Shown here one piece after another: positions 1 to 63,784 of a stretch of 64,000 nt of DNA. The stretch lies in assembly GCA_965223545.1 (NCBI GenBank), contig OZ245006.1, positions 301,954-365,953 of the forward strand. The letters are read 5' to 3'. A program made the translations under genes and the position numbers. The DNA comes from Planctomycetota bacterium. GTDB taxonomy: Bacteria > Planctomycetota > UBA1135 > UBA2386. The notes beneath the pieces were generated by a model. That model saw only the letters and a program-made list of their open reading frames with translations. It had not been told where the DNA came from and made no database searches. Position 1 is the stretch's first letter; each line of letters opens with the position of its first letter.

Positions 1-497
1 ACGCCACCATCAGCAAGGAGATCGGTGACCTGCAGGCTGTGCTGGACGCCGTCGGCACCCGGCGCGTCTTCTACGCCGGCCACAGCATGGGCGCCGCCGT
101 CGGTGTGTTGTGCGCCGCGCGCGATCCGCGGCTGGCGGGCTTGATCTCGCTCGCCGGCATGGTGCACGTCGCCGAGTTCATGCGCCGGCTGTTCGGCCAC
201 CTGACGCCGGACCGCGACGTGATGCTCGACAAGCCGCACTGCCCGCTGACCAGCGCGTTCTTGGCCGACGCCGAGGCGATCGGCGACGTGCTGGCGGCGG
301 CCGCCGAGATCGCCCAGCCATGGCTCTTGGTGCACGGCACCGCCGACGAGCTGGTGCCGCTGCGCGACGCCGAGGACGCGCGCGCCACTTGCCCAAGGGC
401 CGAGCTGTGGACCATCGCCGGCGCCGACCACCGGTTCACCGGTGTCGAGGACGCGGTCGGCGCGCGGGTCGCCGCCTGGGTCGCCCGCCACGCCTGA
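1..497 (+). CDS. alpha/beta-hydrolase fold protein, 5'-truncated at the window edge; possibly type II thioesterase-like
   Basis: In-frame ORF running off the window start. It has a GHSMG nucleophile-elbow motif and a downstream Asp/His region (LLVHGTADELVP ... DHRF). It lies immediately upstream of the NRPS. Confidence 0.6.
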   Translation, partial: ATISKEIGDLQAVLDAVGTRRVFYAGHSMGAAVGVLCAARDPRLAGLISLAGMVHVAEFMRRLFGHLTPDRDVMLDKPHCPLTSAFLADAEAIGDVLAAAAEIAQPWLLVHGTADELVPLRDAEDARATCPRAELWTIAGADHRFTGVEDAVGARVAAWVARHA

Positions 498-45656: not shown

Positions 45657-45783
45657 GGGTTGGATGCGCGGCTGGCGCGGGGCGGCGCGAGGGCTCTGAC
45701 GCCGGCATCTTGCGGGATATTCTGCAAACGCGCAACGCCGCGTGTCACCGGCCACGCCATCGGCGCCACAAGGAGATGGAGCC

Positions 45784-47301
45784 GTGGACAAACCAACCGC
45801 AGTCGGCGCCGGAATGCTGTGCGGCGTGCACGCGATTCCCGTGCGGGTCGAAGCGACCCTGCGCGGCAGCGGCACGCCGCGCATCCTCGGCAGCGTGGAC
45901 ACCGTGGTGCGCGAGGCCTACCACCGATTGCTGACCGCGTTCCCCGCCGACGGGCTGGAGCCACCGCGCGGCTGCCCGACGATCAACTTCTCGCCGGCGA
46001 ACCTGCGCAAGACCGGCAGTGGGTTCGATCTGCCGATGGCATTGGCCCTGGCCGGCGCCGCCGGCCACTACCCGAGCGATCGCGCGGCGACCGTCACCGC
46101 GCTGGGTGAGCTGGGCCTGGACGGCGCGGTGCTGCCGGTGCGCGGGGCGGTGCCGGTGGCGATCGCCGCCGCCCGGACCGGCCGCCGCGACCTGTTGCTG
46201 GCCGAGCGCGACGCGCGGTTGGCCGCTCTGGTGCCGGGGGTCCGCGCCTTTGCCGTGGCGCGGCTGGCCCAGGCCATCGCCTGGCTGCGCGGGACCATCG
46301 ACCTGTCGCCGGCCGAGCCGGCGGCGCCGCCCCCGCCAGCCGCGGTCGCCGACCTCGCCGACATCCGCGGTCACGAGACGGCGAAGACCGCGCTGCAGGT
46401 GGCGGCGGCGGGCAACCACAACACGCTGCTCGTCGGGCCACCCGGATCGGGCAAGTCGGCGCTGCTGCGCCGGCTGCCCGGGCTGCTGCCCGCGGCCTCG
46501 CCGGGCGAGCAGCTGGAGATCATGGCGATCGGCTCGCTGCGCGCCGCCGACGGCTGCGCGCCGGCGGCGCAGCGGCCGGTGCGCTGCCCACACCACACCA
46601 GCAGCTTCGTCAGCCTGCTCGGCGGCGGCCCGGAGCTGCGCCCTGGCGAGGTCACCCTCGCGCATCGGGGCGTGCTGTTCCTCGACGAGCTGGCGGAGTT
46701 CCGCCGCGAGGCGCTCGAGGCCCTGCGGCAGCCACTCGAGGATGCAAAGGTCAGCGTCGGGCGGGCGCGCGGAGTGATCCAGATGCCGGCCGACTTCCTG
46801 TTCGTGGCGGCGATGAACCCGTGCCCGTGTGGCTACTGGGGACACCGCGGCCGCGCATGCGTGTGCGGGCCGTCGCAGCGGCGCCGCTACGCGGCGCGGA
46901 TCTCGGGGCCGCTGCTCGACCGCCTCGACCTGCAGGTGGCGTTGCCGCAGCTGTCCGCCGCCGAGCTCGCCCAGCCGGCCGACGCGCGCTGGTCGACCGC
47001 CGCCCTCCGCGCGCCGATCGACACGGCGCGGGCGCGCCAGGCTGCGCGCTCACCCCGGTCGCCGGTGCCCAACAGCCGGCTTGGCGGCGAGCTGCTGGAG
47101 GCGGCCATCGGACCGGACCAGGCCACCCGGACACGCCTCGACGCCTTGGTGCGGCGGCACCACTTGTCCGGCCGCGCCCGGGAGCGCCTGCTGCGGGTGG
47201 CACGGACGGTCGCCGACCTCGACGACCGCGATACGGTCACGGTCGAGGATCTGCTCGCGGCGGCGCGCTTGCGGGGGCTGCATCACTCGCCGACCGAATG
47301 A
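45784..47301 (+). CDS. comM: YifB/ComM-family Mg-chelatase-like AAA+ ATPase
   Basis: N-terminal Lon-protease-like domain. Walker A GPPGSGKS and Walker B VLFLDE. Zn-binding PCPCGYWGHRGRACVC. C-terminal Mg_chelatase_C domain. Confidence 0.85.
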   Translation: MDKPTAVGAGMLCGVHAIPVRVEATLRGSGTPRILGSVDTVVREAYHRLLTAFPADGLEPPRGCPTINFSPANLRKTGSGFDLPMALALAGAAGHYPSDRAATVTALGELGLDGAVLPVRGAVPVAIAAARTGRRDLLLAERDARLAALVPGVRAFAVARLAQAIAWLRGTIDLSPAEPAAPPPPAAVADLADIRGHETAKTALQVAAAGNHNTLLVGPPGSGKSALLRRLPGLLPAASPGEQLEIMAIGSLRAADGCAPAAQRPVRCPHHTSSFVSLLGGGPELRPGEVTLAHRGVLFLDELAEFRREALEALRQPLEDAKVSVGRARGVIQMPADFLFVAAMNPCPCGYWGHRGRACVCGPSQRRRYAARISGPLLDRLDLQVALPQLSAAELAQPADARWSTAALRAPIDTARARQAARSPRSPVPNSRLGGELLEAAIGPDQATRTRLDALVRRHHLSGRARERLLRVARTVADLDDRDTVTVEDLLAAARLRGLHHSPTE

Positions 47302-51281: not shown

Positions 51282-51405
51282 GATGAGGCTGCTCTGCCGG
51301 ACTGTAGGGCAGCGCTCCGCACAGCTCAATGCGGGGGCGCTGCGGGACGCACAGAACTCCTCCGAACCTCTACGCTGGCCGGCAAAGCCAGATGCGACTC
51401 GACCC

Positions 51406-52923
51406 ATGACCCCGAACATGACCCTCGCGACCGCGCTGTCGGTGCTTTCTCTGTGCGCCCCGTTGGCCGCCCAGCCCCAGCTGTCCGCGCCGCGCACCCT
51501 CGCCGCCCAAGCTGGGCAGATCGCGCTGGCCTACGACGAGCCCAACGATCGATTCCTCGTCGCCTACACCAGCGCCGCGGGAGTGAAGGGCACCTTGGTC
51601 CAGGCCGACGGCTCGATCGCGGCCGGGCCGTTTCCGATATCCACCCGCAATGCCCGTGACGTCGCCGTCGGCAACGTCGCTGCCCGCGGCGCATTCGTCG
51701 CGGTGTACCCCCGCGGAATCCCGTCGGCGCTCTACGGCGTGGTGATCGACGCGGCGACCGGCGCGGTGTCTCCGGAGATCCTCGTCGACTCGACCGAGGG
51801 CTTTGCGCTGTTCGAGCCGGCGCTCTCCGACGCGACCACCGGGCTCGACGCGCTGACGTTGGCCTACACCCGCCGAGACAACGCCGCGTGCTTCGTCAAC
51901 TGCCTCTCGATCGGCGCCGCCCGACTCGCCGTCAGTGCCGCTCTGCGGCTGCAGGTCGTCCGCCGCGCGGTCATCGGCCACGACATCAGCCGGCCGCGGC
52001 TGGCCGAGTCCACCGTCGCTGCCGGCACCGTGGTGATGAGCTATACGGGCTACAGCACGATCAGCACCACCGTGCACGCGTCGTTCCAGACGGTCGACGC
52101 GACCTTGACCGGCACCGGCGCGACCTGGCTCCACTCGATCGCGGACAACCTCTCCACCGGCATCGGCGGAGACGGATCCTCCTGGCACGTCGCGGTCGGC
52201 ACCGCGTTCGACCTCCGTGGCTACCGCCTCGACTCCGGTGGGCAAGCGCCGGTCCTCGGCACTGGCGGCGTGTTGGTCTCCGGCGTGACCTCGGCGGTGC
52301 AGCCCGTCGTCCTCGGCCAATCCGCGCTCGTGTTCCACCAAACGCTCAGCAGCGGGCGGTCGGAACTCTGGCTGCGGTCGCGCACGCCAACCGGCTGTGG
52401 AGCGTGCGAGGCACCGCGCCTGGTGGCAGCCGACAGTCCCGGGTTCGCGGTCGCCGCGCGGCGGCGCAATGGTCGGCCGGCCGACCGCGCGCTGCTCGCA
52501 TGGCGCGTCGCGGCAACGCTGCAATCGGCCGTGGTGAACGTCGCCGACGGCGCGGTGACCGACCTGGGCGGCGGCTGCGGCGCGGGCGCGCGCGCGTTCG
52601 TCGGCTGCGCCCGCCCCGGCAACGCGTGCTTCGTCCACGAGGTGCGCGGCGCTCCACCGCGCTCGTTGGCCTGGCTGGCGATCGGCAGTCGGCCAGCTCT
52701 GCTCTCCTGCGGTCCCTGTCAGCTGCGCGTCGACCCCGTCGGCGCGGCCCTCCTCTGGACCCGCATCGATACGCGCGGACAGGGCAGGCAGACCACCCCG
52801 CTGCCGGCATCACCGGCGCTGGTCGGGGCTCGATTCGTCGAGCAGTGGTTGGTCTTCGAGCCCTCGGGCTGCGCGCCGTATGGCGTCGCCCTCAGCAACG
52901 CCCTGGACACAACCATCCAGTAG
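51406..52923 (+). CDS. Secreted hypothetical protein
   Basis: Signal peptide MTPNMTLATALSVLSLCAPLAAQ. High GC3. Confidence 0.55.
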   Translation: MTPNMTLATALSVLSLCAPLAAQPQLSAPRTLAAQAGQIALAYDEPNDRFLVAYTSAAGVKGTLVQADGSIAAGPFPISTRNARDVAVGNVAARGAFVAVYPRGIPSALYGVVIDAATGAVSPEILVDSTEGFALFEPALSDATTGLDALTLAYTRRDNAACFVNCLSIGAARLAVSAALRLQVVRRAVIGHDISRPRLAESTVAAGTVVMSYTGYSTISTTVHASFQTVDATLTGTGATWLHSIADNLSTGIGGDGSSWHVAVGTAFDLRGYRLDSGGQAPVLGTGGVLVSGVTSAVQPVVLGQSALVFHQTLSSGRSELWLRSRTPTGCGACEAPRLVAADSPGFAVAARRRNGRPADRALLAWRVAATLQSAVVNVADGAVTDLGGGCGAGARAFVGCARPGNACFVHEVRGAPPRSLAWLAIGSRPALLSCGPCQLRVDPVGAALLWTRIDTRGQGRQTTPLPASPALVGARFVEQWLVFEPSGCAPYGVALSNALDTTIQ

Positions 52924-52983: not shown

Positions 52984-55566
52984 TCAGGCCTCGAAGTAGA
53001 CCGTTACGCGGGTGATCTCGATGCTGGCGGAGACCGCGAGGTCGTAGAGCACCAGGAACCGATAGCCGGTGGCGTCGTCGTCGTCGAGCACGCCTTCGCC
53101 GGCCGGTGCGAAGCGGCCGACGTAGCGGCGCCAGTCGCCGATCGTGGCGGGGTCGACTTGGCCGGTGGTGGCCTGCACCTGCGCGCCCTGGAAGTAGACC
53201 TGCACGGCGGAACCCATTCCGATCGCCGGCCCCATGGCGCGGAAGCCACTGGGCCCGGTCCAGCTCGGGTCGTCCGAGTAGAACACGTCCTGCCCGTCCA
53301 GCTTGGCGCGCACTTCGTAGCGCAGGAACGTCGGCTTGAACAGCTGTCGCGTCGGGTAGAAGCGCGACTGGTCGCCGACCTGCAGGTCGGAGTCGCTGAG
53401 CACCCCGACGCTGTTCGCGGTGGCCGCCGGCACGGTGTTCGGAAGCAGGCTCGGACCGCCGCCGTTGGGGGTCTCCAGCCGCACCGAGCCCGCGGCTCCG
53501 TCGCCACCGACGACGTGCACGATGTAGATCGCGCCGTCTTGATAGGTGCCGCCCTTGCCGCCGCTGGTGTCGATCGCGCCGAGCACACTCGACGCCCCGC
53601 CGCACTGCATCAGGATCGAGCCACCCGAGCCGCCACCGCCGGGAGACAGGGGCGGCGAGCCCGACGGGCTCAGACCACCACGGCCGCCGAAGGCCTGGAT
53701 CTCCGAGCCGGCTTCGGTGCGAATGTTGCCGCCGGCGCGGAACAGGATCGCGCCACCGCCACCGCCACCACCGGTCCCCGGCTTCCACACCACCGGCGTG
53801 TTCAGCAAGGAGAAGTGGGGGTGCGAACCGGAACCACCGCCACCGGAGCCGCCGACCATGAAGTGATCCACGGACCGGGTGCCGGACGGCACCGGGAACA
53901 GGTCGAACGCGATGCCGCCCGTCGAGTCGGGCCCGGCGTTCTGCTTGCTGCCGTTGGTCGAGATCACCTCGCCCTTGGCGCCCTGGGCGGCGAAGCCACC
54001 ACCGGCACCACCGGCCGCGATCTGCGCGGAGAACTGACCCGCCTGCAGCGAGTAAGTGACCTGCAGCGGCGCCACCGGATACTGCAACGAGCCGCCACCA
54101 CCGGTGCCGACCGCCCGCGCCGAGTAGGCGTGACCCGCCGGCAGGAGCACGTCCTCACCGGGCAAGCCATTCGAGGGGTTGGTCAAGCCGGTCGACGCAC
54201 GCGCGCCATCGCCGCCCTTGGCGCCACCAGGGGCTCCGGCAGCGCCGGGCTGGCCGAGCAGCCCACCCTGATAGACACCGGGCGACGGCGCGTTGAGCTC
54301 GATCTTGCCGCGCACGTTGATTTCACCGCGAACGAACACCTGGGGCGGGGTCGAACCGACCCAACGCAGGACGGTGTTCTCGGGCACTTCGAAGCGCGAG
54401 AAGAAGAACACGCCGTCGGTGACGGTCACGTCGTTGCCATCCAGCGTGCGGGCACCGGGAATGGTCTGGTTGTCGGTGTTCCACTCGTAGATCGGATCGG
54501 CACCCAGCGGCACGGTGACCGCCCTGCCGTCCCGGATGTCGAATTCGCCCATCAAGCCGTGGCCGCCGATGACGCCCGGCTTCGCGCTGCCGTTGCCCCA
54601 GGAACCCGACGAGTACGCCGGGTCGAGCTGACCGCCGGTACCGAAGCTCTCGGACACCTCGAACTCCTGCGGCTGGCCGGCATCGGTGATGAAGGAGAAG
54701 ACCCGGCGCGCGGCGGGCTTGCCGGACAGGTCGGTGACCCGGTCGGTGACCTCCACCTCGACGCAAACTCCGCCCGGCAGCTGCACGGTCGGCTTGAGGA
54801 CGACCTGGGTCGTCTTGTTGATGGGATCGACGATCGCCTGCGGCACGCCGCCGAGGTCGACCGCCGGCTGGGCGGGATCACATTCGACACCACCACCCGC
54901 CTTTGGACGGGTGCGACGCAGCCGATACAGCACCGGCGCGGTCGCCGTGGTCGCCCCCTGGAACGGCTGCACGTCGAGGATCTCGCTGAACGCCAGGATG
55001 ATCGTCACCGACGTCGGCACCCCCGTCGTGCTCGCCGGTGAGATCATCGTGCCGACGGGCGGTTGGCCGTCGAGGTCCTCGACCCCGCGCGTCACGTTGA
55101 GAGTGCACGACAGGGTCTGCGGCAACCGGTCGCCCGACGTCGAGCGCAGCGACTGTGGCTCGGCCGGCCCACCCGGCAGCGTCAGGATGTAGGTCTCGTT
55201 GGCGCGGAAGCCGAATGACGTCACTCCACCGACGATCTTGATGTCCGGCTCGAACCGCAGCTCGTTCCCGTTGACCAGCAGCCGGCCGACCGGTGCCTCG
55301 CCGTTGCGCGTCTGGATCGACACCGAGGCCGCGTTGACCGACGACGGGTCGATGGGCGCGTTGAACTGAATGACGATCGGCTGGTTCTGGGCGATGTCCG
55401 TCACCCCACAACCTCCGTTCGCACAGCCGAGGTTGCAGTTTTGGATGCAGAACTGGCCCCCACCCGCGCAGCGCGCCGACGCCGAGGTCGGGCCATCGGA
55501 GCCACCGGAGCACGATGCGAACAGGAAGCCGCCGAGCAGCAAGGCGATCAGGAACGGATTCTTCAT
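52984..55566 (-). CDS. Large surface lipoprotein (860 aa): Cys-rich N-terminal segment, SbsA-type Ig-like domain, Gly-rich beta-helix-like core and conserved C-terminal domain
   Basis: Lipobox LFASC. Cysteine cluster CIQNCNLGCANGGCG. Ig-like domain QPIVIQFNAPIDPSSVNAASVSIQ. Poly-Gly tracts. Paralogous to the next gene. Confidence 0.7.
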   Translation of the reverse strand: MKNPFLIALLLGGFLFASCSGGSDGPTSASARCAGGGQFCIQNCNLGCANGGCGVTDIAQNQPIVIQFNAPIDPSSVNAASVSIQTRNGEAPVGRLLVNGNELRFEPDIKIVGGVTSFGFRANETYILTLPGGPAEPQSLRSTSGDRLPQTLSCTLNVTRGVEDLDGQPPVGTMISPASTTGVPTSVTIILAFSEILDVQPFQGATTATAPVLYRLRRTRPKAGGGVECDPAQPAVDLGGVPQAIVDPINKTTQVVLKPTVQLPGGVCVEVEVTDRVTDLSGKPAARRVFSFITDAGQPQEFEVSESFGTGGQLDPAYSSGSWGNGSAKPGVIGGHGLMGEFDIRDGRAVTVPLGADPIYEWNTDNQTIPGARTLDGNDVTVTDGVFFFSRFEVPENTVLRWVGSTPPQVFVRGEINVRGKIELNAPSPGVYQGGLLGQPGAAGAPGGAKGGDGARASTGLTNPSNGLPGEDVLLPAGHAYSARAVGTGGGGSLQYPVAPLQVTYSLQAGQFSAQIAAGGAGGGFAAQGAKGEVISTNGSKQNAGPDSTGGIAFDLFPVPSGTRSVDHFMVGGSGGGGSGSHPHFSLLNTPVVWKPGTGGGGGGGAILFRAGGNIRTEAGSEIQAFGGRGGLSPSGSPPLSPGGGGSGGSILMQCGGASSVLGAIDTSGGKGGTYQDGAIYIVHVVGGDGAAGSVRLETPNGGGPSLLPNTVPAATANSVGVLSDSDLQVGDQSRFYPTRQLFKPTFLRYEVRAKLDGQDVFYSDDPSWTGPSGFRAMGPAIGMGSAVQVYFQGAQVQATTGQVDPATIGDWRRYVGRFAPAGEGVLDDDDATGYRFLVLYDLAVSASIEITRVTVYFEA

Positions 55567-55627
55567 GGAACGCGGAACGAAGCGGAGGGAAACGGGGGGA
55601 AAGGCCGACGGCCGGGCACGCGCTGGT

Positions 55628-58294
55628 TCACAGGGGGCGGAACACGATGCGCACGTGGTCGACGACCGCGGTGGTCGACAGTGCGCGGTCGAACAGCAGC
55701 AAGAAGCGAATCATCACCGCGCCGTCGGTGTGCACCGATGCCTGGCCCGCGGCGTGGTCGCCGACGTAGCGACGCCAGGGCTTGATGCTGTCGGGATCGA
55801 CCTGGCCGAGCGCGTCGACACCGGCACCCTGCGCGTAGAAGCGCACCGGCTGACCCTGTCCGGCCAACATGCCGACCGCGGGGTCGTCGCTGTAGGTCAC
55901 CACCGGCGCACCCGGCGATGGGATCAGGTCCATCTCGTAGCGCTCGAAGATCGGCGGGAACACCTGCAGGGTCGGGGTCCAGATGGAGACCGCACCGACC
56001 AACGAGTCCTCCGCCGTCAGCGGGGCCACGGTGATGGACGGTGTGATGACTTGACCTTGCGGACCTAGCGCCATGGGCTCGGTTTCCTTCAACAGGGTCA
56101 GTGCCGGTGTCTGGGTCGTCTCCAGCCGGAGGAAGCCATGGCTGGCGTCTCCGCCCTTGGACTGCATGTTCCAGTTGGTCGGAATGCCGAACGACGAACC
56201 GCCGAGGCCGCCGGCGATCGAGATCTTGCCGGTCTGCAGGACCGAGGATGCGACTTGCAGCAGGACGCTGCCGCCGGCACCCGCGCCTCCCGGCACCCCG
56301 AAGTTGTTGGCGCTGAAACTCGGCGCGTCCCCCGTGCTCCCGCCGGAGGCATCGATCACGCCATCCAGCCCGAGCTCGAAGTCACGGCCGATGCGCAAAC
56401 CGAGCGCACCGCCGCCACCGGCGCCGCCGCCACCGGACCGCCAGCGAATCTGCGTGCTGCCGGGCTGCGACACCGACAGGAACGGGTGCGACCCCGCGCC
56501 GCCGCCGCCGGCACCGCCGATCAGCATGTGATCCCACGCGTCGACGCCGGCGGGAATCGGCAGCAGGTCGAACTGGGTCCCCGCGTCTGCCGGCGGGCCA
56601 GCCTCTGCCGGCGCGCCCGTCGGCGTGACCAGCACCTCGCCCTCACTGCCCGCGACGGCAAAGCCAGCGCCACCACCACCGGCCGCGACTTGCCCGGAGA
56701 ACTGTCCCAGGACCTGCGTCATGTCGACGTCGCTGTCCAAGCCGGTCGCCGGGAACTGGCCGGAGCCGCGACCGGCCGAGTTGCGCGCCCGCGTCGCATA
56801 GGCGTGCCCCGCCGGCACCTGTGCATCCTGACCGTTGCGGCCGTTGAACCGGGGCTGGTTGCCCTGGCCATCGCCCATGTCGGCACCGTCGCCACCCGCG
56901 GCGGAACCCGCCGCGCCGCCGCTGCTGCCGCCGACCGCACCGGCCTGCCCGACCGGGTCGTTGCCGTCCGGCGCCATCAAGCTGCCCCCGGCGAGGTCGA
57001 GGATGCCGTCGACCTTCATCAGGCCGCGCACGAAGATCCGCGCCGGGTTGCTTCCCACGAAGCGCACCCGCACGCCCTTGGTCAGCACGAACTTGCTGAA
57101 CCGGAACACACCGTCGGTGACGACTTCGTCGTTCCCGCTGAGGGTGTGCGAGCGGACGCCGGCGAAGTTGTGGGTGCGCGGAATCAGCTGATTGTCGGTG
57201 TTCCACTCCCACACGTTGGGCTCGACCTCGACGCCCAGCTCGGGGGCGAACACTCCGTGCGCGCCGTCCCAGCCGATGTCACCGGCCATCGCAACACCAC
57301 CGCCCCACGCCCCGGAGGACGAGTCGAACTCCATGCCGAGACTGTTCTGGAACGACTCGTGCAGCGTCACCGCTGGCTGTGGAGTTGGCCGGGTGGTGAA
57401 CTGGAAGCGTTGGCCCGGCGACGGAGTGCCGGCGAGATCCTCGACGCGCGCGGTGACCTCGACGTGGATGCAGACGCCGCTCGGTGCCGTCTGCGCCGGC
57501 ACGAAGGTCGCGGTCGTCAGCTGGCGCACCAAGTCGTCGCGCAGATCCCAGGTGCCCAACAGCTCCTGCGGAACGAACGCCGGATCGCACTCGGTGCCGC
57601 CGCCCGCCGCCGGCCGCTGGCGCTGGACGCGCACGACGATCGGCTGGTTGGCGGCCGTCGAGGTGAGGAACGGCGCGTGGGTGATGAACTCGCTGAACTC
57701 GAGCACGATCTGCGCATTCGGCGCGAACGGACCGTTCCCGGCCGGCGAGATCATGTCCGCCTGCGGCGGCGCCTCGTCGAGGTCGAGCACGCCGCGCGAC
57801 ACGGTCAGCGCGCACTGGTACGGCGCGGCGAGCTCGTCGCCGGACACCGAACGCAGCACGGAAGGCTGCGACGCGCCCGCCGGCAGCGATAGCAAGTAGG
57901 TCTCGCCGGCGCGGAAGCCGAAGAAGCTCGTGGCGCCGACCGACAGCACCTCGGGCAAGAAGGTGACCACCGAACCCGACACCAAGAAGGTGCCCACCGG
58001 CTCTTCACCGGCGGCCGTGCGCAGCGACACCGTCGACGAGTTGACCGTCGCGGGATCCACGTCCTGGTTGAAGGTGAAGATCAGCGGTTGGTTCTGCGCG
58101 ATCTGGTTGATGCTGCAGCCCGCGGTCGTGCAGCCCAGGTTGCAGGAAGCCAGGCACAGGGCCTCGCTCTGCGGAACTCCCGTGGCGCAGCTCGGCACTA
58201 CCGGTCCCGGGTCGGTGGCGGAACCGCCGGAGCAGGCGGCCAGCGCCAAGAGACACGGAATCGACAAGAGTACGGAGCGGCTCAGCATGGGCAC
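55628..58294 (-). CDS. Large surface lipoprotein (888 aa), paralog of 52984-55566
   Basis: Lipobox LALAAC. Cysteine cluster CLASCNLGCTTAGCS. Shared blocks with its neighbour include RVRFVGSNPARIFVRG, AGHAYATRA, FDLLPIPAG and WRRYVG. Confidence 0.7.
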   Translation of the reverse strand: MPMLSRSVLLSIPCLLALAACSGGSATDPGPVVPSCATGVPQSEALCLASCNLGCTTAGCSINQIAQNQPLIFTFNQDVDPATVNSSTVSLRTAAGEEPVGTFLVSGSVVTFLPEVLSVGATSFFGFRAGETYLLSLPAGASQPSVLRSVSGDELAAPYQCALTVSRGVLDLDEAPPQADMISPAGNGPFAPNAQIVLEFSEFITHAPFLTSTAANQPIVVRVQRQRPAAGGGTECDPAFVPQELLGTWDLRDDLVRQLTTATFVPAQTAPSGVCIHVEVTARVEDLAGTPSPGQRFQFTTRPTPQPAVTLHESFQNSLGMEFDSSSGAWGGGVAMAGDIGWDGAHGVFAPELGVEVEPNVWEWNTDNQLIPRTHNFAGVRSHTLSGNDEVVTDGVFRFSKFVLTKGVRVRFVGSNPARIFVRGLMKVDGILDLAGGSLMAPDGNDPVGQAGAVGGSSGGAAGSAAGGDGADMGDGQGNQPRFNGRNGQDAQVPAGHAYATRARNSAGRGSGQFPATGLDSDVDMTQVLGQFSGQVAAGGGGAGFAVAGSEGEVLVTPTGAPAEAGPPADAGTQFDLLPIPAGVDAWDHMLIGGAGGGGAGSHPFLSVSQPGSTQIRWRSGGGGAGGGGALGLRIGRDFELGLDGVIDASGGSTGDAPSFSANNFGVPGGAGAGGSVLLQVASSVLQTGKISIAGGLGGSSFGIPTNWNMQSKGGDASHGFLRLETTQTPALTLLKETEPMALGPQGQVITPSITVAPLTAEDSLVGAVSIWTPTLQVFPPIFERYEMDLIPSPGAPVVTYSDDPAVGMLAGQGQPVRFYAQGAGVDALGQVDPDSIKPWRRYVGDHAAGQASVHTDGAVMIRFLLLFDRALSTTAVVDHVRIVFRPL

Positions 58295-58687
58295 CCCTCG
58301 GTGACCGGGAACAGAGTCGAAAACACGGAAGGGCCGGACCCGATCGGGGCTGCCGGGGGGCGGCCAAGGGCACTCATAAACATACCAAAACCAGGAGGAT
58401 ATGGCGGTGGATTCACCGCGTGGGCAGCATCGCCCCGCAGCATCGCACCAAACACCATACCAGCGGAGCGCAAGCCGACCACGCGGGGCTGTGGGCCGGT
58501 GAGCCTAACCGCTGTTCGCAACGGTCCCCAGCTGGATCCGCGCGGCCTTGGGCAGTTTTTCGCCACCCCCGACGGACCGGGCGAACGCCCCCGCGCGCCG
58601 CCCGTGGTGAGCGTTATCCCACGCCCAACTGTTCGACAACGAACGCCACGGTGACCGCCCGCAATCGCGGTGCTAGTCTGCGGCGCC

Positions 58688-59734
58688 ATGGCCACCGCCG
58701 ATCCGTCCAGCTCCCCGCCGCCACCCGGCCGCGCCGCCCATCCCGCGCTGATCGGGTTGTCGGTGATCACCCTCGGTTGCGTCGCCTACGGGCTCTACTC
58801 GAGTCAGCGGCGTCACGACCAGCTCGAGGACCGGCTCGCGGAGGTGCGTGCAGCGGTCGAGAAGCAGGCCGCCGGCCTGCAGCTGCTGCGCTTCGAGAGC
58901 CGCAGCAAGAAAGGCCTCGGGATGGAGGCACTGTGCGATCAACTCGCGTTCTGGGGGGAACAGTACGACCACGCGTCCACCCCTCAGGTCGAGCGCCCGG
59001 CGATCCAGGAGCGCCTCGACGGCGTCCTCGAGGCGATGGAGTTCATCGGCGGGGAGCGCGCCGTCGCCGAGCTCGAGCGTCGCTTCGTCGCGCTCGATGC
59101 CGAACGGGAGGCCGCGGTGCGCGAGTGGGTCCTGCGCGCACTGGCTCATCTGAACACCGAACGCAGCCGCGAGGTCCTGGCGACCGTCGCCCGCGGGCTC
59201 GAGTTCCGCACCACTCCGGCGATCCGCCTGTTCGCCGCCAAGGAGCTGCTGCGCTTGGCGCCGGACCGGGGCGCAGAAGTGGTGCGCGACATCCTGCGCC
59301 TGGAGAGCGCGCATGGGCTCGACATCCAGCGCGTGCCGGTCGACCAGCGGCCGTTGTACGAGCGCCACATCGACAACTTCCCCGCCAACCGCGCCTTCTA
59401 CAACTACGTCGACCTCTTCGCCAGCTCGGGGAGCGACGATCGGGAGAGCGAGCTCTTGATGCTTCTGGGTCGGTACCGCGAGCACGATCTGCTCACCACC
59501 CAGCAAGCCGTGAAATCGCTGGCGGCGCTCGGCTCGCGGCAGGCGTCCGACACCATCAAACAGCTGTTCGAACGGCCACCCGACAGCTTCAACCCGCTGT
59601 TCCGCAACCACTGCCTCGACGCGCTGGCGGCGATTCTCGCCGACGACGCCCACCCCTACTTTCGCGAGGCACTGGCCAAGGAGCGCAACGAGCTGGTGCG
59701 CGCCAAGCTGAACGACCTGCTCGGCAGCGGCTGA
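58688..59734 (+). CDS. Membrane-anchored HEAT-like repeat hypothetical protein
   Basis: N-terminal TM helix (LIGLSVITLGCVAYGLY) followed by a helical repeat region. Confidence 0.5.
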   Translation: MATADPSSSPPPPGRAAHPALIGLSVITLGCVAYGLYSSQRRHDQLEDRLAEVRAAVEKQAAGLQLLRFESRSKKGLGMEALCDQLAFWGEQYDHASTPQVERPAIQERLDGVLEAMEFIGGERAVAELERRFVALDAEREAAVREWVLRALAHLNTERSREVLATVARGLEFRTTPAIRLFAAKELLRLAPDRGAEVVRDILRLESAHGLDIQRVPVDQRPLYERHIDNFPANRAFYNYVDLFASSGSDDRESELLMLLGRYREHDLLTTQQAVKSLAALGSRQASDTIKQLFERPPDSFNPLFRNHCLDALAAILADDAHPYFREALAKERNELVRAKLNDLLGSG

Positions 59735-59751: not shown

Positions 59752-61587
59752 TCAGTCGCGTGGCGCTGCCGCCAGCCCCTGCAGCGCGGCCAGAACCGCG
59801 GGCTCGAACGGCGCCTGCTGCGCGGCGCGACGGACGTCGGCCGCGGCGGCGGCTGGCTGACCCGCGGCGCGGTGGGCGTCGGCGCGGTCGAGCAACACGG
59901 TCCAGTGATCCAGTCCCAACGACACGCTCTCGTCCAGCAGCTCCACCGCCAGGTCGGGGCGCCCCTGGAGACGGCGCGCGTGCGCCGCGGTGCGGTAGAC
60001 CAGGCCCTTGGGCGCCTCGAACTCGTGCACTGACAGGGCCGCCGCCACCGCCTGATCGTAGCCGGCCGGGTCGCCGGTGCGGCGCGCCGCGGCCGCCAGC
60101 GCCCGGCTGAGGAGGAGGCGGAAGAACGGGTTGTTCGCCCCGCGCTCCACCAGCCAGCGCGCGTGCGCCAGGGCTACCACCGGATCGCCGCGCTCGCCGA
60201 GCTGCAGATTCAGCTCGGCGATGCTGCGCCGCGCGGAGACGTAGTCGGGGTAGCGCGCCACCGCGGCGCGCATGTGGCGGAGCGCCGGCTCCAGCGCGCC
60301 CGCCCGCATCGCCAGCGCACCGAGGCTGTAGTGCGCCCGGTAGGACTCCGGCGCGAGCACCAGCGCGCGGCGCCAGAGCTCGCACTCGTCCCGATAGGCG
60401 GCACTGCGCTCGAACGCCACCGCGCCGAAGCCGAGCGCGAAGCTGGCCGGAATCGCCACGGCAACGGCCCTGAGCCAACCGCGGTCGGCGCGCCGCGGCA
60501 GCGCGGCGCCCGCCGCCAGCGCGGCGCCGGCGACCAGGCCGTACATGCGATGCTCGCTGAGCGGCACGTTGAGCGGCACCACGATCCACGGCAGCGACGT
60601 CAGCCAAGCGAGCGCGGTGGCCGCGAACAGCACCGGCCGCCGCGCGGGTCGCGCCAGCCCCCACGCCGTGAGCCCGCCGATCAGAACGACGCCGAACAGG
60701 ACCGTCGCGGACGCCGGGCCGCGCACGAACTCGACCGCTGGATCGAGAGTCAGCGCGTTCGGCCAAACCAGCTGTGCCAAGTAGCCGGGCAGCGCGCTCG
60801 CCATCGTGCACAGCTGCGTCAGCAGATCGCGGCCGGCACCGGTCAGCGGGTCGGCCCCACCGACCACGACGACGCGGGGCAGGGTCGCGGCGCCGAACAG
60901 GGCGCGACGGATCAGCAGATAGCCCACCGCGACGGCCACCACCGGCAGCAGCCGCACCACCACCGCCCGCGGCCGCAGCGCTCCGGACTGCCGCCAATGC
61001 ACCAGCTCCAGCGCCACGACGAGCGCCGGCAGGACCACCCCGGTCTCCTTCGCGCCGCACGCGATCACCCCACACAGTGCCACCACCCAGGGCCAGCCGC
61101 GCCCCCGCGCCTGGGCGTACAGATGGGCGTGCAGACCGGCCAGCAGCGCGACCAGAAGCAGGCCCTCGCTGCGCGCCGAGATCATGTTGACGGTCTCCGA
61201 TACCAGCGGATGCACGGCGAACAGGAGGCCCGCTGCGGCAGCCGCCCACCGACCCAGCCCGAGGCGCCGGCCAAGCCCGGCCAGCAGCAGGGCCGCGGCC
61301 GCGTGCAGGAGTACGTTGGTCAGCTTGAACATCCAGACCGCACCGCCGGCGATGGCGTGGTCCACCGCGAACGTGGTGAGCAGCACCGGCCGGTACATGC
61401 GGTTGTCGAGCGAGCTGAACAGCGTCACGTCGGTGAAGAACGCGGGCACGTTGGCGAGCGACCACAGCGCGGTGTTCTCCGCCACCGAGTGGTGGTCGTC
61501 GTAGACGAACGCCCCACCGAGGGCCACGCCGTACGCACCGAACGCGCCCACCAACACCAGGATCCACGGCAACCCAATGCGCTTCAT
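59752..61587 (-). CDS. GT-C-fold membrane glycosyltransferase-like protein with a C-terminal TPR domain (PMT/TMTC/ArnT-like architecture)
   Basis: About 11 TM helices. DD motif in the first extracytoplasmic loop (GAFVYDDHHSV). TPR-like helical repeats at the C-terminus. The ATG start overlaps the upstream stop as ATGA. Confidence 0.6.
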   Translation of the reverse strand: MKRIGLPWILVLVGAFGAYGVALGGAFVYDDHHSVAENTALWSLANVPAFFTDVTLFSSLDNRMYRPVLLTTFAVDHAIAGGAVWMFKLTNVLLHAAAALLLAGLGRRLGLGRWAAAAAGLLFAVHPLVSETVNMISARSEGLLLVALLAGLHAHLYAQARGRGWPWVVALCGVIACGAKETGVVLPALVVALELVHWRQSGALRPRAVVVRLLPVVAVAVGYLLIRRALFGAATLPRVVVVGGADPLTGAGRDLLTQLCTMASALPGYLAQLVWPNALTLDPAVEFVRGPASATVLFGVVLIGGLTAWGLARPARRPVLFAATALAWLTSLPWIVVPLNVPLSEHRMYGLVAGAALAAGAALPRRADRGWLRAVAVAIPASFALGFGAVAFERSAAYRDECELWRRALVLAPESYRAHYSLGALAMRAGALEPALRHMRAAVARYPDYVSARRSIAELNLQLGERGDPVVALAHARWLVERGANNPFFRLLLSRALAAAARRTGDPAGYDQAVAAALSVHEFEAPKGLVYRTAAHARRLQGRPDLAVELLDESVSLGLDHWTVLLDRADAHRAAGQPAAAAADVRRAAQQAPFEPAVLAALQGLAAAPRD

Positions 61588-62792
61588 CGCGACGCCGCCC
61601 CCGACGCGATCACGCTCTCCCCGCGCGGGCGAGGTCCCGCAGCGCTCGGTCCCGGAAGCGAAGCGGTCTCGATGCCGGCCTGTGCCAGTGCGAGCCGCAG
61701 CGAGGCGGCAACCGCGCCGCTGGAAAAGCGCCGGTCGTAGGCGGGCCGGGCCGCGGCGGCCCGCGCCGCCAAACCCTCTGCATCGTCGCGCGCCGCCCCG
61801 AGCGCGCGGCCGATCGCCGCCGGATCGCCGGGTGGCACGAGCAGCGCCGCCGCGGCCGCGGCTCGTCGCACGGGTGGCGCGTCGACAGTCAGCACCGGAC
61901 GCCCCGCGGCCAGCGCGTGCATCACCTTGAACGGCACTACGCGCGACGCCTTGGCCGAGGCGCCGAACACGCCACACACCAGATGGGCCGCCGCGATCGC
62001 GCTGTCGAGATCGGGACGGTCGACGAACACCGGGCCGAGGCGCACTCCACCGTGGGCCGCGGCACGGCGCCGGTCTTCTTCGCCACCGCCGATCAACGTC
62101 AGCTCGACGCCGGAGGCCCCCACGGCGGCGTCCAGCAGGTGCCGCAGGCCGTGCAGCGGAACGCCGGTGCCGAAGAACAGCGCGCGCAGCGGCGCGCCGG
62201 CGCGCGGCGGCTCGAACCGCGGCGCTTCCGCCGGCGCCCACGGATCGGACACCGGTACCCATGAGAACCGCTCGCCGCCGACACCGACGATCTCGGCGAC
62301 CGCCTGCGCGTGCTCGGGGGTGTCGAGCAAGACGACGTCCGCGGCGCGGCAGGCGCGGCGGTCCAGCGCGCTGAACACCGCGCCTGCCGCCCGCCCGGCA
62401 CCGAGCAGCTGCCGGTCGCCGACCACGGTGTCGTAGGCGGACAAGAACAGGTCGAGTACGATCGGACCGTCGAAGCAGCGCCGCAGCCATGGTGCGACCA
62501 GGTGGCCCGGGTAGGGGATCAAGACGACGTCCGGGCGGTGGGCGGCCAGCGCGGCGCGCACCTGGCGCCGAGTTCCGCTGCCCGACGCCAGAACGCGCGG
62601 CACCGCGCGCGCCATCGCCCCCCACGAGGACAGAGCCCGTCGCTTGGCAGCGCCGGCGAACGGCGTCGGCAGCCGACACTCCACGACGTCGAGCGGCAGC
62701 GCGCGCAAGCCCGCCAGCAACGCGGCGGGCCGGGGGTAGCCGGGACCGGTATCCCAGCAACCACAGACCATGATCTTGGCCACGGACCTCAC
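61584..62792 (-). CDS. Glycosyltransferase, GT4 (GT-B fold) family
   Basis: GT-B pattern: N-terminal domain, then C-terminal motifs LIGGGEE and VVPFKVMHALAAGRPVL. Both its start and stop overlap neighbouring genes by 4 bp. Confidence 0.65.
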   Translation of the reverse strand: MRSVAKIMVCGCWDTGPGYPRPAALLAGLRALPLDVVECRLPTPFAGAAKRRALSSWGAMARAVPRVLASGSGTRRQVRAALAAHRPDVVLIPYPGHLVAPWLRRCFDGPIVLDLFLSAYDTVVGDRQLLGAGRAAGAVFSALDRRACRAADVVLLDTPEHAQAVAEIVGVGGERFSWVPVSDPWAPAEAPRFEPPRAGAPLRALFFGTGVPLHGLRHLLDAAVGASGVELTLIGGGEEDRRRAAAHGGVRLGPVFVDRPDLDSAIAAAHLVCGVFGASAKASRVVPFKVMHALAAGRPVLTVDAPPVRRAAAAAALLVPPGDPAAIGRALGAARDDAEGLAARAAAARPAYDRRFSSGAVAASLRLALAQAGIETASLPGPSAAGPRPRGESVIASGAASR

Positions 62793-63784
62793 TCGCGGCT
62801 ACTGCGCTCCATGCGCAGCGCGGCGACCTGCTCCGAGATCAAGCCCAGGCCGAAGATGACGGTCGCCTGCGTCAGCAGGAACACGGCCATGTTGGTGAAC
62901 CGGCTCTGGCTGAAGTAGGTGTAGCCGTACCACGCCAAGCCCATTGCGGCGAACGCCAGCGCCAGCGGCCCGAACACCCGCAGGGGAGCGAAGAACGTGG
63001 CGATCCGCATGATGATCAACAGGAACCGGCTGCCATCCCGCAGCAGGCGGATGTGGCTCTTGCCCTGCCGGCGGCGCACGACGATGTCGCAGAAACCGAC
63101 GGCGTAACCGCCGCGCAGCATGGCGAGCGTGATCGTCGTCGGGTAGCTGAACGTGTTGGGCAGCAGATAGGCGTAGCTCTTGGCGACTTCCGCCCGCATC
63201 AGCCGGTAGCCACTGGTGAGGTCCGGGATCGGCCGGCTGGTGACGTAGCTCGCCAGCCCGTTGTAGACCTTGTTGGCCAGGTTGCGGTGCCAGTCACCCC
63301 CACTGCCGCCGCGCGAGCCGACGACCATGTCGTGGTCCGCCGCCATCCGCAGCATGCCGGGGATGTGCTCCGGCGGGTGCTGGCCGTCGCCGTCGAGCAG
63401 GAGGATCCACTCGGCGGTCGCCGCCCGAATGCCGCGCTTCACCGCGGCACCGTTCCCCAGGCTGCGCGGGTGCCGGAGCACGCGCGCGCCGCAGCGCCGG
63501 CCGATCTCGGCGGTGTCGTCCTCGCTGCCGTCATCGATCAGCAGCAGCTCGTAGCGCAGGCCCGTCTGCGCGCGCAGCACCGTCTGCAGCTCCACCAGGA
63601 GGGCGTCCAGGCCGGCGGCCTCGTTCTTCGCCGGGATCACCACCGACAGCGACCGCACCGCCGCCTCCGGGGCGGGCGCGCCGTCGGACACCCGCTCCGG
63701 CAGGTCGCCGGTCGCCATCAGAGTCGCGACCTGCGCGCGGCCCTCGGTTGCCGAAACGATCATGCCATCGGGCCTATCGACCAC
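62789..63784 (-). CDS. GT2 polyprenol-phosphate glycosyltransferase (DPM1/ArnC/GtrB-like) with C-terminal TM helices
   Basis: Motifs SVVIPAKNEA and LLLIDDGSED (DXD). C-terminal hydrophobic helices are typical of GtrB/ArnC. Confidence 0.75.
   Translation of the reverse strand: MVDRPDGMIVSATEGRAQVATLMATGDLPERVSDGAPAPEAAVRSLSVVIPAKNEAAGLDALLVELQTVLRAQTGLRYELLLIDDGSEDDTAEIGRRCGARVLRHPRSLGNGAAVKRGIRAATAEWILLLDGDGQHPPEHIPGMLRMAADHDMVVGSRGGSGGDWHRNLANKVYNGLASYVTSRPIPDLTSGYRLMRAEVAKSYAYLLPNTFSYPTTITLAMLRGGYAVGFCDIVVRRRQGKSHIRLLRDGSRFLLIIMRIATFFAPLRVFGPLALAFAAMGLAWYGYTYFSQSRFTNMAVFLLTQATVIFGLGLISEQVAALRMERSSRE

Follow-up and report, generated by a model that had tools for sequence, protein, structure and literature searches.

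Among known beta-helices, those closest to the predicted helix of the proteins described here belong to the TPS exoproteins (HMW1, EtpA, HxuA, HpmA, FHA) and to autotransporter passengers (IcsA, VacA p55, Ag43, pertactin, IgA1 protease, Pet). Glycine-rich polyglycine-II domains (ALK/LTK, the tip of phage S16 gp38, the proposed PE_PGRS fold) are possible counterparts of their core. We also take the chlamydial polymorphic membrane proteins (Pmps) with their GGA[ILV]/FxxN repeats, which come from the related PVC superphylum, to be possible analogues. We analyzed a window of 64,000 nucleotides from a Planctomycetota bacterium (contig OZ245006.1) containing a tandem pair of genes, A and B, whose products share a constant module of about 560 amino acids. 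This module is predicted to contain a right-handed beta-helix, a feature of the TpsA exoproteins.

The preliminary description had placed two genes on the same strand, 61 bp apart, without naming the strand; the arrangement was confirmed and both genes lie on the minus strand (Table 1). The product of gene A is identical to public protein P0001. Gene B may alternatively start at the ATG at 58288 (55628-58288, 886 aa), as in public protein P0038. Neither terminator-like nor sigma-70-like sites were found in the spacer, so co-transcription of B and A is likely. A pairwise BLASTP comparison aligned the two proteins over their full length with 40% identity (E 9e-151), which bears out their description as paralogues with identical architecture, in which a lipobox signal is followed by a Cys cluster, a pair of Big_5 Ig-like domains, a Gly-rich core and a C-terminal domain. 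Since synonymous sites are saturated at this level of amino-acid identity, dN/dS of the pair is uninformative. GC3 of both reading frames is the signature of real genes, and the long antisense ORFs over A and B lack it. At 70% GC many spurious long ORFs occur in the window. The window also encodes a ComM whose matches among other proteins, all from Planctomycetota MAGs, share no more than 65% identity with it.

Table 1. Features of the gene pair, in positions of the window.
Feature	Position	Strand	Remarks
Gene B (upstream copy)	55628-58294	minus	888 aa from first GTG; stop codon 55628-55630; GC3 0.86
B signal peptide	58232-58288	minus	canonical lipobox LAAC, Cys19 in 886-aa numbering
B Cys cluster and two Big_5 Ig-like domains	57380-58195	minus	residues ~32-303; PF13205 E 5e-10; alignment to A
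B glycine-rich beta-helix core (predicted)	56099-57379	minus	residues ~304-730; aligned to A core; in family alignment A2
B C-terminal beta-sandwich (predicted)	55631-56098	minus	residues ~731-886; alignment to A, family alignment A2
Intergenic spacer B/A	55567-55627	minus	61 bp
Gene A (downstream copy)	52984-55566	minus	860 aa, ATG start; stop codon 52984-52986; GC3 0.87
A signal peptide	55510-55566	minus	lipobox-like FASC, Cys19
A Ser/Gly-rich tether	55477-55509	minus	residues 20-30; low pLDDT in model
A Cys cluster and Ig-like domain 1	55072-55476	minus	residues 31-165; Pfam Big_5 E 8e-13; model
A Ig-like domain 2	54673-55071	minus	residues 166-298; conserved C229, C268
A constant module, start	54277-54672	minus	residues 299-430; strand-rich, strands short and regular as is typical for rungs of a beta-helix
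A most glycine-rich segment	53767-54276	minus	residues 431-600; 25% Gly
A repeated Gly-run and short-strand rungs	53452-53766	minus	residues 601-705; DSSP, hhalign
A C-terminal beta-sandwich (predicted)	52987-53451	minus	residues 706-860

The N-terminal third of both proteins carries the features of exported lipoproteins. A lipobox of the bacterial pattern [LVI][ASTVI][GAS]C, or a close variant with an atypical Phe at -3 in A, was found at the end of the signal peptide, and across 81 homologues its Cys shows a conservation of at least 90%, in line with the lipobox signal previously noted in each protein. Next to it the preliminary description had seen a segment of four Cys. The cluster as such is present; the count has to be raised to five (C33, C40, C44, C48 and C53 in A), with three more conserved Cys further along the protein (C154 in Ig-like domain 1, C229, C268). 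The eight conserved Cys besides that of the lipobox are all confined to the N-terminal 270 residues. Pfam Big_5 (PF13205) matched two stretches in each protein with 49.4 bits in A and 40.5 bits in B, both above the curated gathering score of 23.6 bits, and an AlphaFold2 model of the full protein likewise shows two Ig-like domains, where a single SbsA-type domain had been proposed. Foldseek matched these domains to the tandem Ig domains of LdtMt2 and to SbsC, and also to alpha-2-macroglobulin domains.

Glycine accounts for 27% of A residues 431-700, in comparison to 6-10% in the neighboring genes, and the poly-Gly tracts quoted earlier are present in both proteins. They are not collagen-like, as had been stated, the longest G-X-Y run being a single one of 4-5 triplets per protein. 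The conserved blocks that had been listed are also present, except that A reads LRWVGS at a position given as RF in the consensus. AlphaFold2 modeled the full protein with a mean pLDDT of 92.6 (pTM 0.79) and the module alone with the same pLDDT and a pTM of 0.90; the two runs were based on different alignments and agreed in their pattern of secondary structure. Residues 299-430 of A are probably the part matching TPS-type beta-helices in the model. The following segment, 431-600, contains the motifs AGHAY, GTGGxGS and VGGSGGGGxGSHP and almost no strand or helix by DSSP, with most 10-residue blocks at pLDDT >=90 and the lowest at 78-89. Two related units follow at about 597-640 and 643-680 (hhalign probability 94.8%), and then a conserved R696-x-E698. 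Across 81 full-length homologues taken from independent assemblies, the Gly-rich region, Gly runs included, shows position-by-position conservation. Family-invariant residues are mostly Gly and hydrophobic. Of the two possibilities raised before, beta-helix or disorder, the two confident models favor an ordered fold containing a beta-helix, and the glycine-rich center is predicted to be a rigid helix like those of bacterial adhesins and not a floppy linker.

A C-terminal domain shared by A and B, as described before, is borne out by their full-length alignment. The polar residues retained in distant relatives are located in the last rung and in this domain, where S734, Q793, W812 and R836 of A are conserved even in relatives of 25% identity; distant relatives have lost H479, D727 and D765. 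When the Ig domains were left out, structure matches included the jelly-roll modules CBM16 (7.0), CBM70 (6.9) and CBM61 (6.6) and the EphB2 ligand-binding domain (6.7), the CBM scores being weak and without a sequence match. The fold resemblance extends over only about 130 of the 562 residues of the module, and the best structural matches are non-enzymatic. The suggestion of a surface adhesin is consistent with the predicted fold, which resembles secreted adhesins.

The family could not be named in the preliminary description, and no curated family was found to cover the Gly-rich core or the C-terminal domain: neither Pfam, NCBIfam and PHROG nor the PDB sequences gave a match covering the module, the best match of the family profile among all PDB sequences (E 0.18) was to unrelated chains, and a literature search for a described family returned nothing relevant. 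At 50% identity the module family comprises no fewer than 354 clusters, and every match with a source name belongs to the Planctomycetota, which agrees with the idea of a lineage-specific family. A phage origin was dismissed, as the best whole-protein PHROG match (E 0.014) is not meaningful and no relative was found in viral contigs. The search for further paralogues that had been proposed yielded several more copies per genome, with propeller N-termini and without a lipid anchor. The module was found behind Kelch, FG-GAP or extra PF13229 beta-helix N-termini, typical extracellular interaction domains, and these members carry Sec signal peptides without a lipobox.

A scan of genome contigs, flooded with matches to the low-complexity Gly pattern, returned only nine loci. 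All eight other Planctomycetota loci holding enough sequence contain the tandem pair in the same synteny, with gaps of 59 and 83 bp in other genomes. Upstream copies group with upstream copies and downstream copies with downstream ones (six loci), B of the window pairing with the upstream copy of locus L001, and identity within a pair is only 32-51%. The pair had been taken for a recent duplication; its presence in all eight loci, the sorting of copies by position and the low identity within pairs speak against this. The duplication is old, and the tandem arrangement is ancient and conserved. In a more distant genome the position is occupied by one relative only. Both A and B retain all family-invariant residues. 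The conserved neighbors encode a HEAT-like protein, a DHH phosphoesterase, a metallophosphatase and CutA1 and give no functional hint for adhesion; nor was a functional link found in the annotation of a TPR membrane protein, the HEAT-like protein and a 546-aa ORF. Conservation of a core-genome position is also compatible with a structural role in the envelope. The 1743-aa protein P0093 was considered as Rosetta-stone evidence for an A-B interaction and rejected: as its second half still has a signal peptide and a lipobox of its own, the protein represents read-through of a tandem pair.

The most likely reading, which we regard as about equally likely to be right or wrong, is that A and B are a conserved, probably co-transcribed pair of envelope-anchored, extracytoplasmic binding lipoproteins. 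Each protein would be exported through the Sec route and carry a lipid anchor at Cys19, followed by a short Ser/Gly tether, and the Cys cluster, putatively stabilized by disulfides, would together with the two Big_5 domains keep the remainder off the membrane. The functional part would be the constant module, a rigid right-handed beta-helix made largely of Gly-run and short-strand rungs and capped by a jelly-roll beta-sandwich. Judged by predicted fold and domain company, it may serve as an adhesin- or lectin-type device for binding or scaffolding, with the C-terminal sandwich, together with the junction between it and the last rung of the helix, as the most likely ligand site and a glycan as possible ligand. 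In paralogues with Kelch or FG-GAP propellers at the N-terminus, the same module would be part of a soluble secreted protein. As the two tandem copies are kept throughout, A and B probably cooperate, possibly in a heteromer, or have two related ligands. Against this view of its function, the pair has no annotated or experimental relative, and the function is read from a predicted fold resemblance limited to about 130 module residues.

Alternatively, A and B may be structural parts of the envelope and not ligand-binding adhesins, tethering the anchor to the wall or outer layer or forming a lattice, with the helix as spacer or strut in an obligate heteromer. The fixed, core-genome-like position among housekeeping neighbors at every locus examined, the single relative at this position in the more distant genome, the invariant residues kept by both copies and the resemblance of the Ig-like domains to S-layer SbsC and peptidoglycan-associated LdtMt2 all point that way. 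We consider it rather unlikely, since Pfam detects no SLH or other wall-binding domain, evidence of self-assembly is lacking, and the several anchorless, propeller-bearing paralogues per genome look more like a versatile binding module. That A and B are carbohydrate-active enzymes, right-handed beta-helix lyases, hydrolases or epimerases processing polysaccharide at the cell surface with the aid of Ig-like spacers and a C-terminal CBM, appears very unlikely. Planctomycetota are known polysaccharide degraders, CBM-like C-terminal domains are typical of such enzymes and one relative has the extra PF13229 beta-helix. However, neither a match to a Pfam or NCBIfam enzyme family (E up to 10, 21 members) nor a conserved catalytic acid/base was found. 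The conserved positions of the helix are overwhelmingly Gly, the loss of H479, D727 and D765 and the non-enzymatic nature of the best structural matches argue against catalysis, and the neighborhood is devoid of sulfatases, transporters and other genes of a utilization locus.

The chance that the Gly-rich region arose from an error of annotation or sequencing, or that it is a disordered linker of low complexity, is next to negligible. Poly-Gly tracts are often disordered and the high GC content produces spurious frames, but GC3 and the position-wise conservation in the homologues rule out a frameshift or wrong frame, and the two confident AlphaFold2 models rule out a disordered linker.

The family is uncharacterized, whereas the protein type, an exported protein with a beta-helix and Ig domains, is familiar and has no bearing on a long-standing open question. 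If the binding-lipoprotein reading is true, a sizeable family of exported proteins with several copies per genome lies outside the curated libraries, marks a poorly known and mostly uncultured branch of the Planctomycetota and adds a defined module to the known building blocks of bacterial surface proteins; the syntenic pair would then offer a conserved handle on the envelope of these bacteria. The glycine-rich part may be of interest to structural biology, as its models are confident and its counterparts among solved structures only partial. A bolder reading seems distinctly unlikely to us as a whole: the module would be a new kind of glycine-built solenoid without analogue among solved structures, in which about 170 residues are ordered without regular beta or alpha structure, possibly by polyglycine-II-type packing grafted onto a beta-helix. 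The pair would then be a lineage-specific heteromeric envelope structure and not an ordinary adhesin, adding to the unusual cell-surface architecture of the Planctomycetota in a largely uncultured lineage.

Compared with the known systems, collagen-like, RTX, Pmp and TPS identities were all ruled out by negative regex and Pfam searches. The TPS domain PF05860 gave no Pfam match at E up to 10, the NPNL/NPNG motifs are absent by regex, and about 10 kb around the pair in the window, L001 and L002 contain no TpsB/Omp85 gene. In TPS exoproteins the helix directly follows the signal peptide, whereas the predicted helix of A and B starts at about residue 300, behind the lipobox and the pair of Ig-like domains; TPS beta-helices leave about three quarters of the module without a match. 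Autotransporters end in a translocator barrel, in contrast to the modeled beta-sandwich of about 155 aa at the end of A and B, which have no Pfam barrel match, show no sequence match to autotransporters and are predicted to be anchored by an N-terminal lipid. The likeness to SbsA/SbsC S-layer proteins and to the BIg domains of LdtMt2 is limited to the Big_5 domains in the N-terminal third, which differ by their family-specific set of eight conserved Cys. Pfam finds no SLH, other wall-anchoring domain or other S-layer feature, and the S-layer-like character once suggested, resting only on Big_5 domains that equally match LdtMt2 and alpha-2-macroglobulin domains, was not upheld. RTX beta-rolls differ as well (no PF00353 match; GGxGxD absent from A, once in B). 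Like Pmps, A and B are predicted beta-helical surface proteins containing GGAI and GGSI tetrapeptides; unlike these, they have only three GG[AS][ILV] and one to three FxxN per protein, no PF02415 match and no autotransporter barrel. The ALK/LTK glycine-rich domain PF12810 has no Pfam match in A and B. As in polyglycine-II domains, long Gly runs are followed by short hydrophobic stretches in both proteins, and a confidently modeled region is left unassigned by DSSP.

The window carries two paralogous lipoprotein genes, an upstream copy (gene B) and a downstream copy (gene A), separated by a spacer of 61 bp. Their products align over the full length with 40% identity (BLASTP, E 9e-151), in agreement with the preliminary description of adjacent same-strand genes of identical architecture. 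Since the spacer contains neither a terminator-like nor a promoter-like consensus and the gaps of orthologous pairs elsewhere are short as well (59 and 83 bp), both genes are likely co-transcribed. The window has a GC content of about 70% and many spurious long ORFs. GC3 values of 0.87 and 0.86 in the two reading frames are the signature of real genes. Two ORFs antisense to A and B failed the GC3 test; they are by-products of the 70% GC content and not genes. That the Gly-rich region is an artefact is already refuted and has practically no probability left.

Coordinates of the gene pair and neighbouring features in the window, and predicted segments of the gene A protein (residues)
Feature	Position	Strand	Remarks
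Gene B, upstream copy	55628-58294	minus	888 aa, from first GTG
Gene B, alternative start	55628-58288	minus	886 aa, from ATG; start used in public protein P0038
Gene A, downstream copy	52984-55566	minus	860 aa, ATG start; identical to public protein P0001
A, two Ig-like domains	residues about 31-165, 166-298		
A, strand-rich segment	residues 299-430		short regular strands
A, ordered segment	residues 431-600		DSSP strand/helix nearly absent
A, rungs	residues 601-705		Gly-run + short strand
A, beta-sandwich	residues 706-860		
Antisense ORF over A	53158-55041	plus	627 aa; rejected
Antisense ORF over B	56138-57892	plus	584 aa; rejected
ComM/YifB homologue	45742-47301	plus	
546-aa ORF	51283-52923	plus	gene-like GC3, 12 Cys
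HEAT-repeat protein	58670-59734	plus	divergent from gene B
GT2, GT4, TPR membrane protein	59752-63784	minus	

The proposed lipobox is canonical in B (LAAC) and near-canonical in A (FASC), and at least 90% of the 81 full-length homologues keep its Cys. The reported Cys cluster is present and consists of five rather than four residues (C33, C40, C44, C48 and C53 in A). With three further conserved Cys (C154, C229, C268) this makes eight, all confined to the N-terminal third, a pattern that would argue for an oxidising, extracytoplasmic location. The Ig-like domain corresponds to Big_5 (PF13205), which lies above the Pfam threshold in two stretches per protein and is the only Pfam family matching A and B. 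Gly makes up 27% of residues 431-700 of A compared to 6-10% in neighbouring genes. As stated before, these tracts are not collagen: a GXY array of that type is absent from both proteins. Neither an RTX nonapeptide array nor a TPS motif was found in the two sequences, and GG[AS][ILV] tetrapeptides occur only three times in each. Nearly all details of the preliminary description hold, and what it observed is confirmed and accurately rendered.

The question whether the Gly-rich core forms a beta-helix or is disordered was addressed with AlphaFold2, which predicts an ordered fold with a beta-helix inside. The full-length model of A (81-sequence alignment) reached a mean pLDDT of 92.6 and a pTM of 0.79, with low confidence only for residues 1-29 comprising signal peptide and tether. 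The constant part of about 560 aa (residues 299-860, Gly-rich core plus C-terminal domain, here called the module) was modelled alone from a different 21-sequence alignment with a pLDDT of 92.6 and a pTM of 0.90, and the secondary-structure pattern was the same in both runs. hhalign recognises a pair of related repeats at residues about 597-640 and 643-680 (probability 94.8%). Foldseek picked up nothing beyond the Ig-like tandem, with matches to LdtMt2 domains A and B, SbsC and alpha-2-macroglobulin. A Gly-rich segment that is predicted to be ordered and has no counterpart in solved structures is the most intriguing point.

A recent duplication of the pair had been suggested, which is wrong. 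Same-strand tandem copies are present in all eight other Planctomycetota loci with enough sequence (L001-L008), identity within pairs is 32-51%, and gene order around the pair is syntenic: GT2, GT4, TPR-bearing membrane protein, divergent HEAT-like gene, pair, (amidohydrolase), DHH/DHHA1, metallophosphatase, CutA1. Copies also sort by position: in trees the upstream copies of six loci group together, as do the downstream copies of those six. For the window and L001, upstream and downstream copy alike lie nearer to the 'downstream' clade; their upstream copies, however, are sisters, so the duplication, or a conversion, is older than the split of these two genomes. The metagenomic protein P0093 (1743 aa), an apparent fusion of two family members, was rejected as such: a separate signal peptide and lipobox are still present at the start of its second half, and it is a ninth tandem pair with a missing stop read through. 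A more distant Planctomycetota MAG (L010, 5884-8997, plus strand) encodes a single relative of 1037 aa, about 24% identical to A and closest to the homologues P0303 and P0307, at the same position upstream of DHH and metallophosphatase genes. This lone relative suggests a single ancestral gene that was duplicated in place, with L010 representing the pre-duplication state. Retention of both copies everywhere suggests joint action or divided function.

A word-indexed search with A yielded 92 relatives, nearly all 850-930 aa long and Big_5-bearing; those with a source name are all from Planctomycetota. Record titles and named matches read 'Planctomycetota' or 'Planctomycetes' bacterium, with one locus entitled 'Planctomycetia bacterium' and another 'uncultured bacterium'. 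Searching a module-only profile exhaustively against 1.84 billion cluster representatives gave 1559 matches at E<=1e-3, 760 at 1e-10 and 354 at 1e-30. The N-terminal part ahead of the module varies: about 300 aa with two Big_5 domains, about 450 aa with Kelch propellers, FG-GAP propellers (homologue P0141), an extra PF13229 beta-helix (P0219) or a short stretch of about 150 aa without assignment. Almost all Big_5-type members are lipoproteins; Kelch and FG-GAP types carry ordinary Sec signal peptides. Outside the window, the 8,065,702-bp contig with A and B encodes at least two further Kelch-type paralogues: P0071 has a Sec-type signal peptide without lipobox, and P0094 has no signal peptide in its N-terminus as called. 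One Kelch-type member is labelled Planctomycetota_UBA2386 in its ENA record, UBA2386 being a family-level placeholder inside Planctomycetota (PMC11995701). The family could not be named earlier, and it is indeed absent from curated libraries: A and B matched nothing in NCBIfam or among PDB sequences, and none of 21 diverse module sequences matched Pfam at E up to 10. PHROGs gave no meaningful match, and no relatives were found on viral contigs. The family is uncharacterised and appears restricted to one phylum.

Several neighbours deserve mention. The 546-aa ORF, without Pfam or NCBIfam match, occupies the place between gene A and the DHH gene that an amidohydrolase takes in other genomes; over its last 40 residues it resembles the Kelch-module linker of P0071 (BLASTP E 7e-5). 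The HEAT-repeat protein has an N-terminal transmembrane helix, a coiled coil and a weak, sub-threshold FtsL-like match (E 0.018). Its gene adjoins the pair in L001-L006, L008 and L009, and a functional link is possible. L001, L003 and L006 have the GT2, GT4 and membrane-protein block in the same synteny; the multi-pass protein (about 600 aa) ends in TPR repeats, and for its membrane domain neither a family nor a solved structure gave a match. No other protein in the collection exceeds 65% identity to the ComM/YifB homologue, whose matches all come from Planctomycetota MAGs.

We give roughly an even chance to the reading that A and B are a conserved pair of lipoproteins acting outside the cytoplasm, in which Ig-like spacers would hold out a rigid Gly-built beta-helix capped by a jelly-roll domain, the module serving as a binding or scaffolding device of adhesin or lectin kind for a putative ligand. 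Conservation bears on this. F308, W323, F389, P497, Q654, R696, E698, S734, Q793, W812 and R836 are kept down to about 25% identity, H479, D727 and D765 are lost over the same range, and the invariant columns are mostly Gly; judged by these columns, a structural or binding module would fit better than an enzyme. A carbohydrate-active enzyme of the beta-helix type is rated improbable. A purely architectural role in the envelope we regard as unlikely, if less so than the enzyme.

Compared with known systems, A and B do not belong to the TpsA, autotransporter, RTX, Pmp, collagen-like or ALK-type glycine-rich families, for each of which defining features were looked for and found absent. The same holds for S-layer proteins, to which they had been likened: no SLH or other wall-anchoring domain was found, and the pair does not belong there. 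The kind of protein is familiar, with no sign so far of an unusual mechanism.
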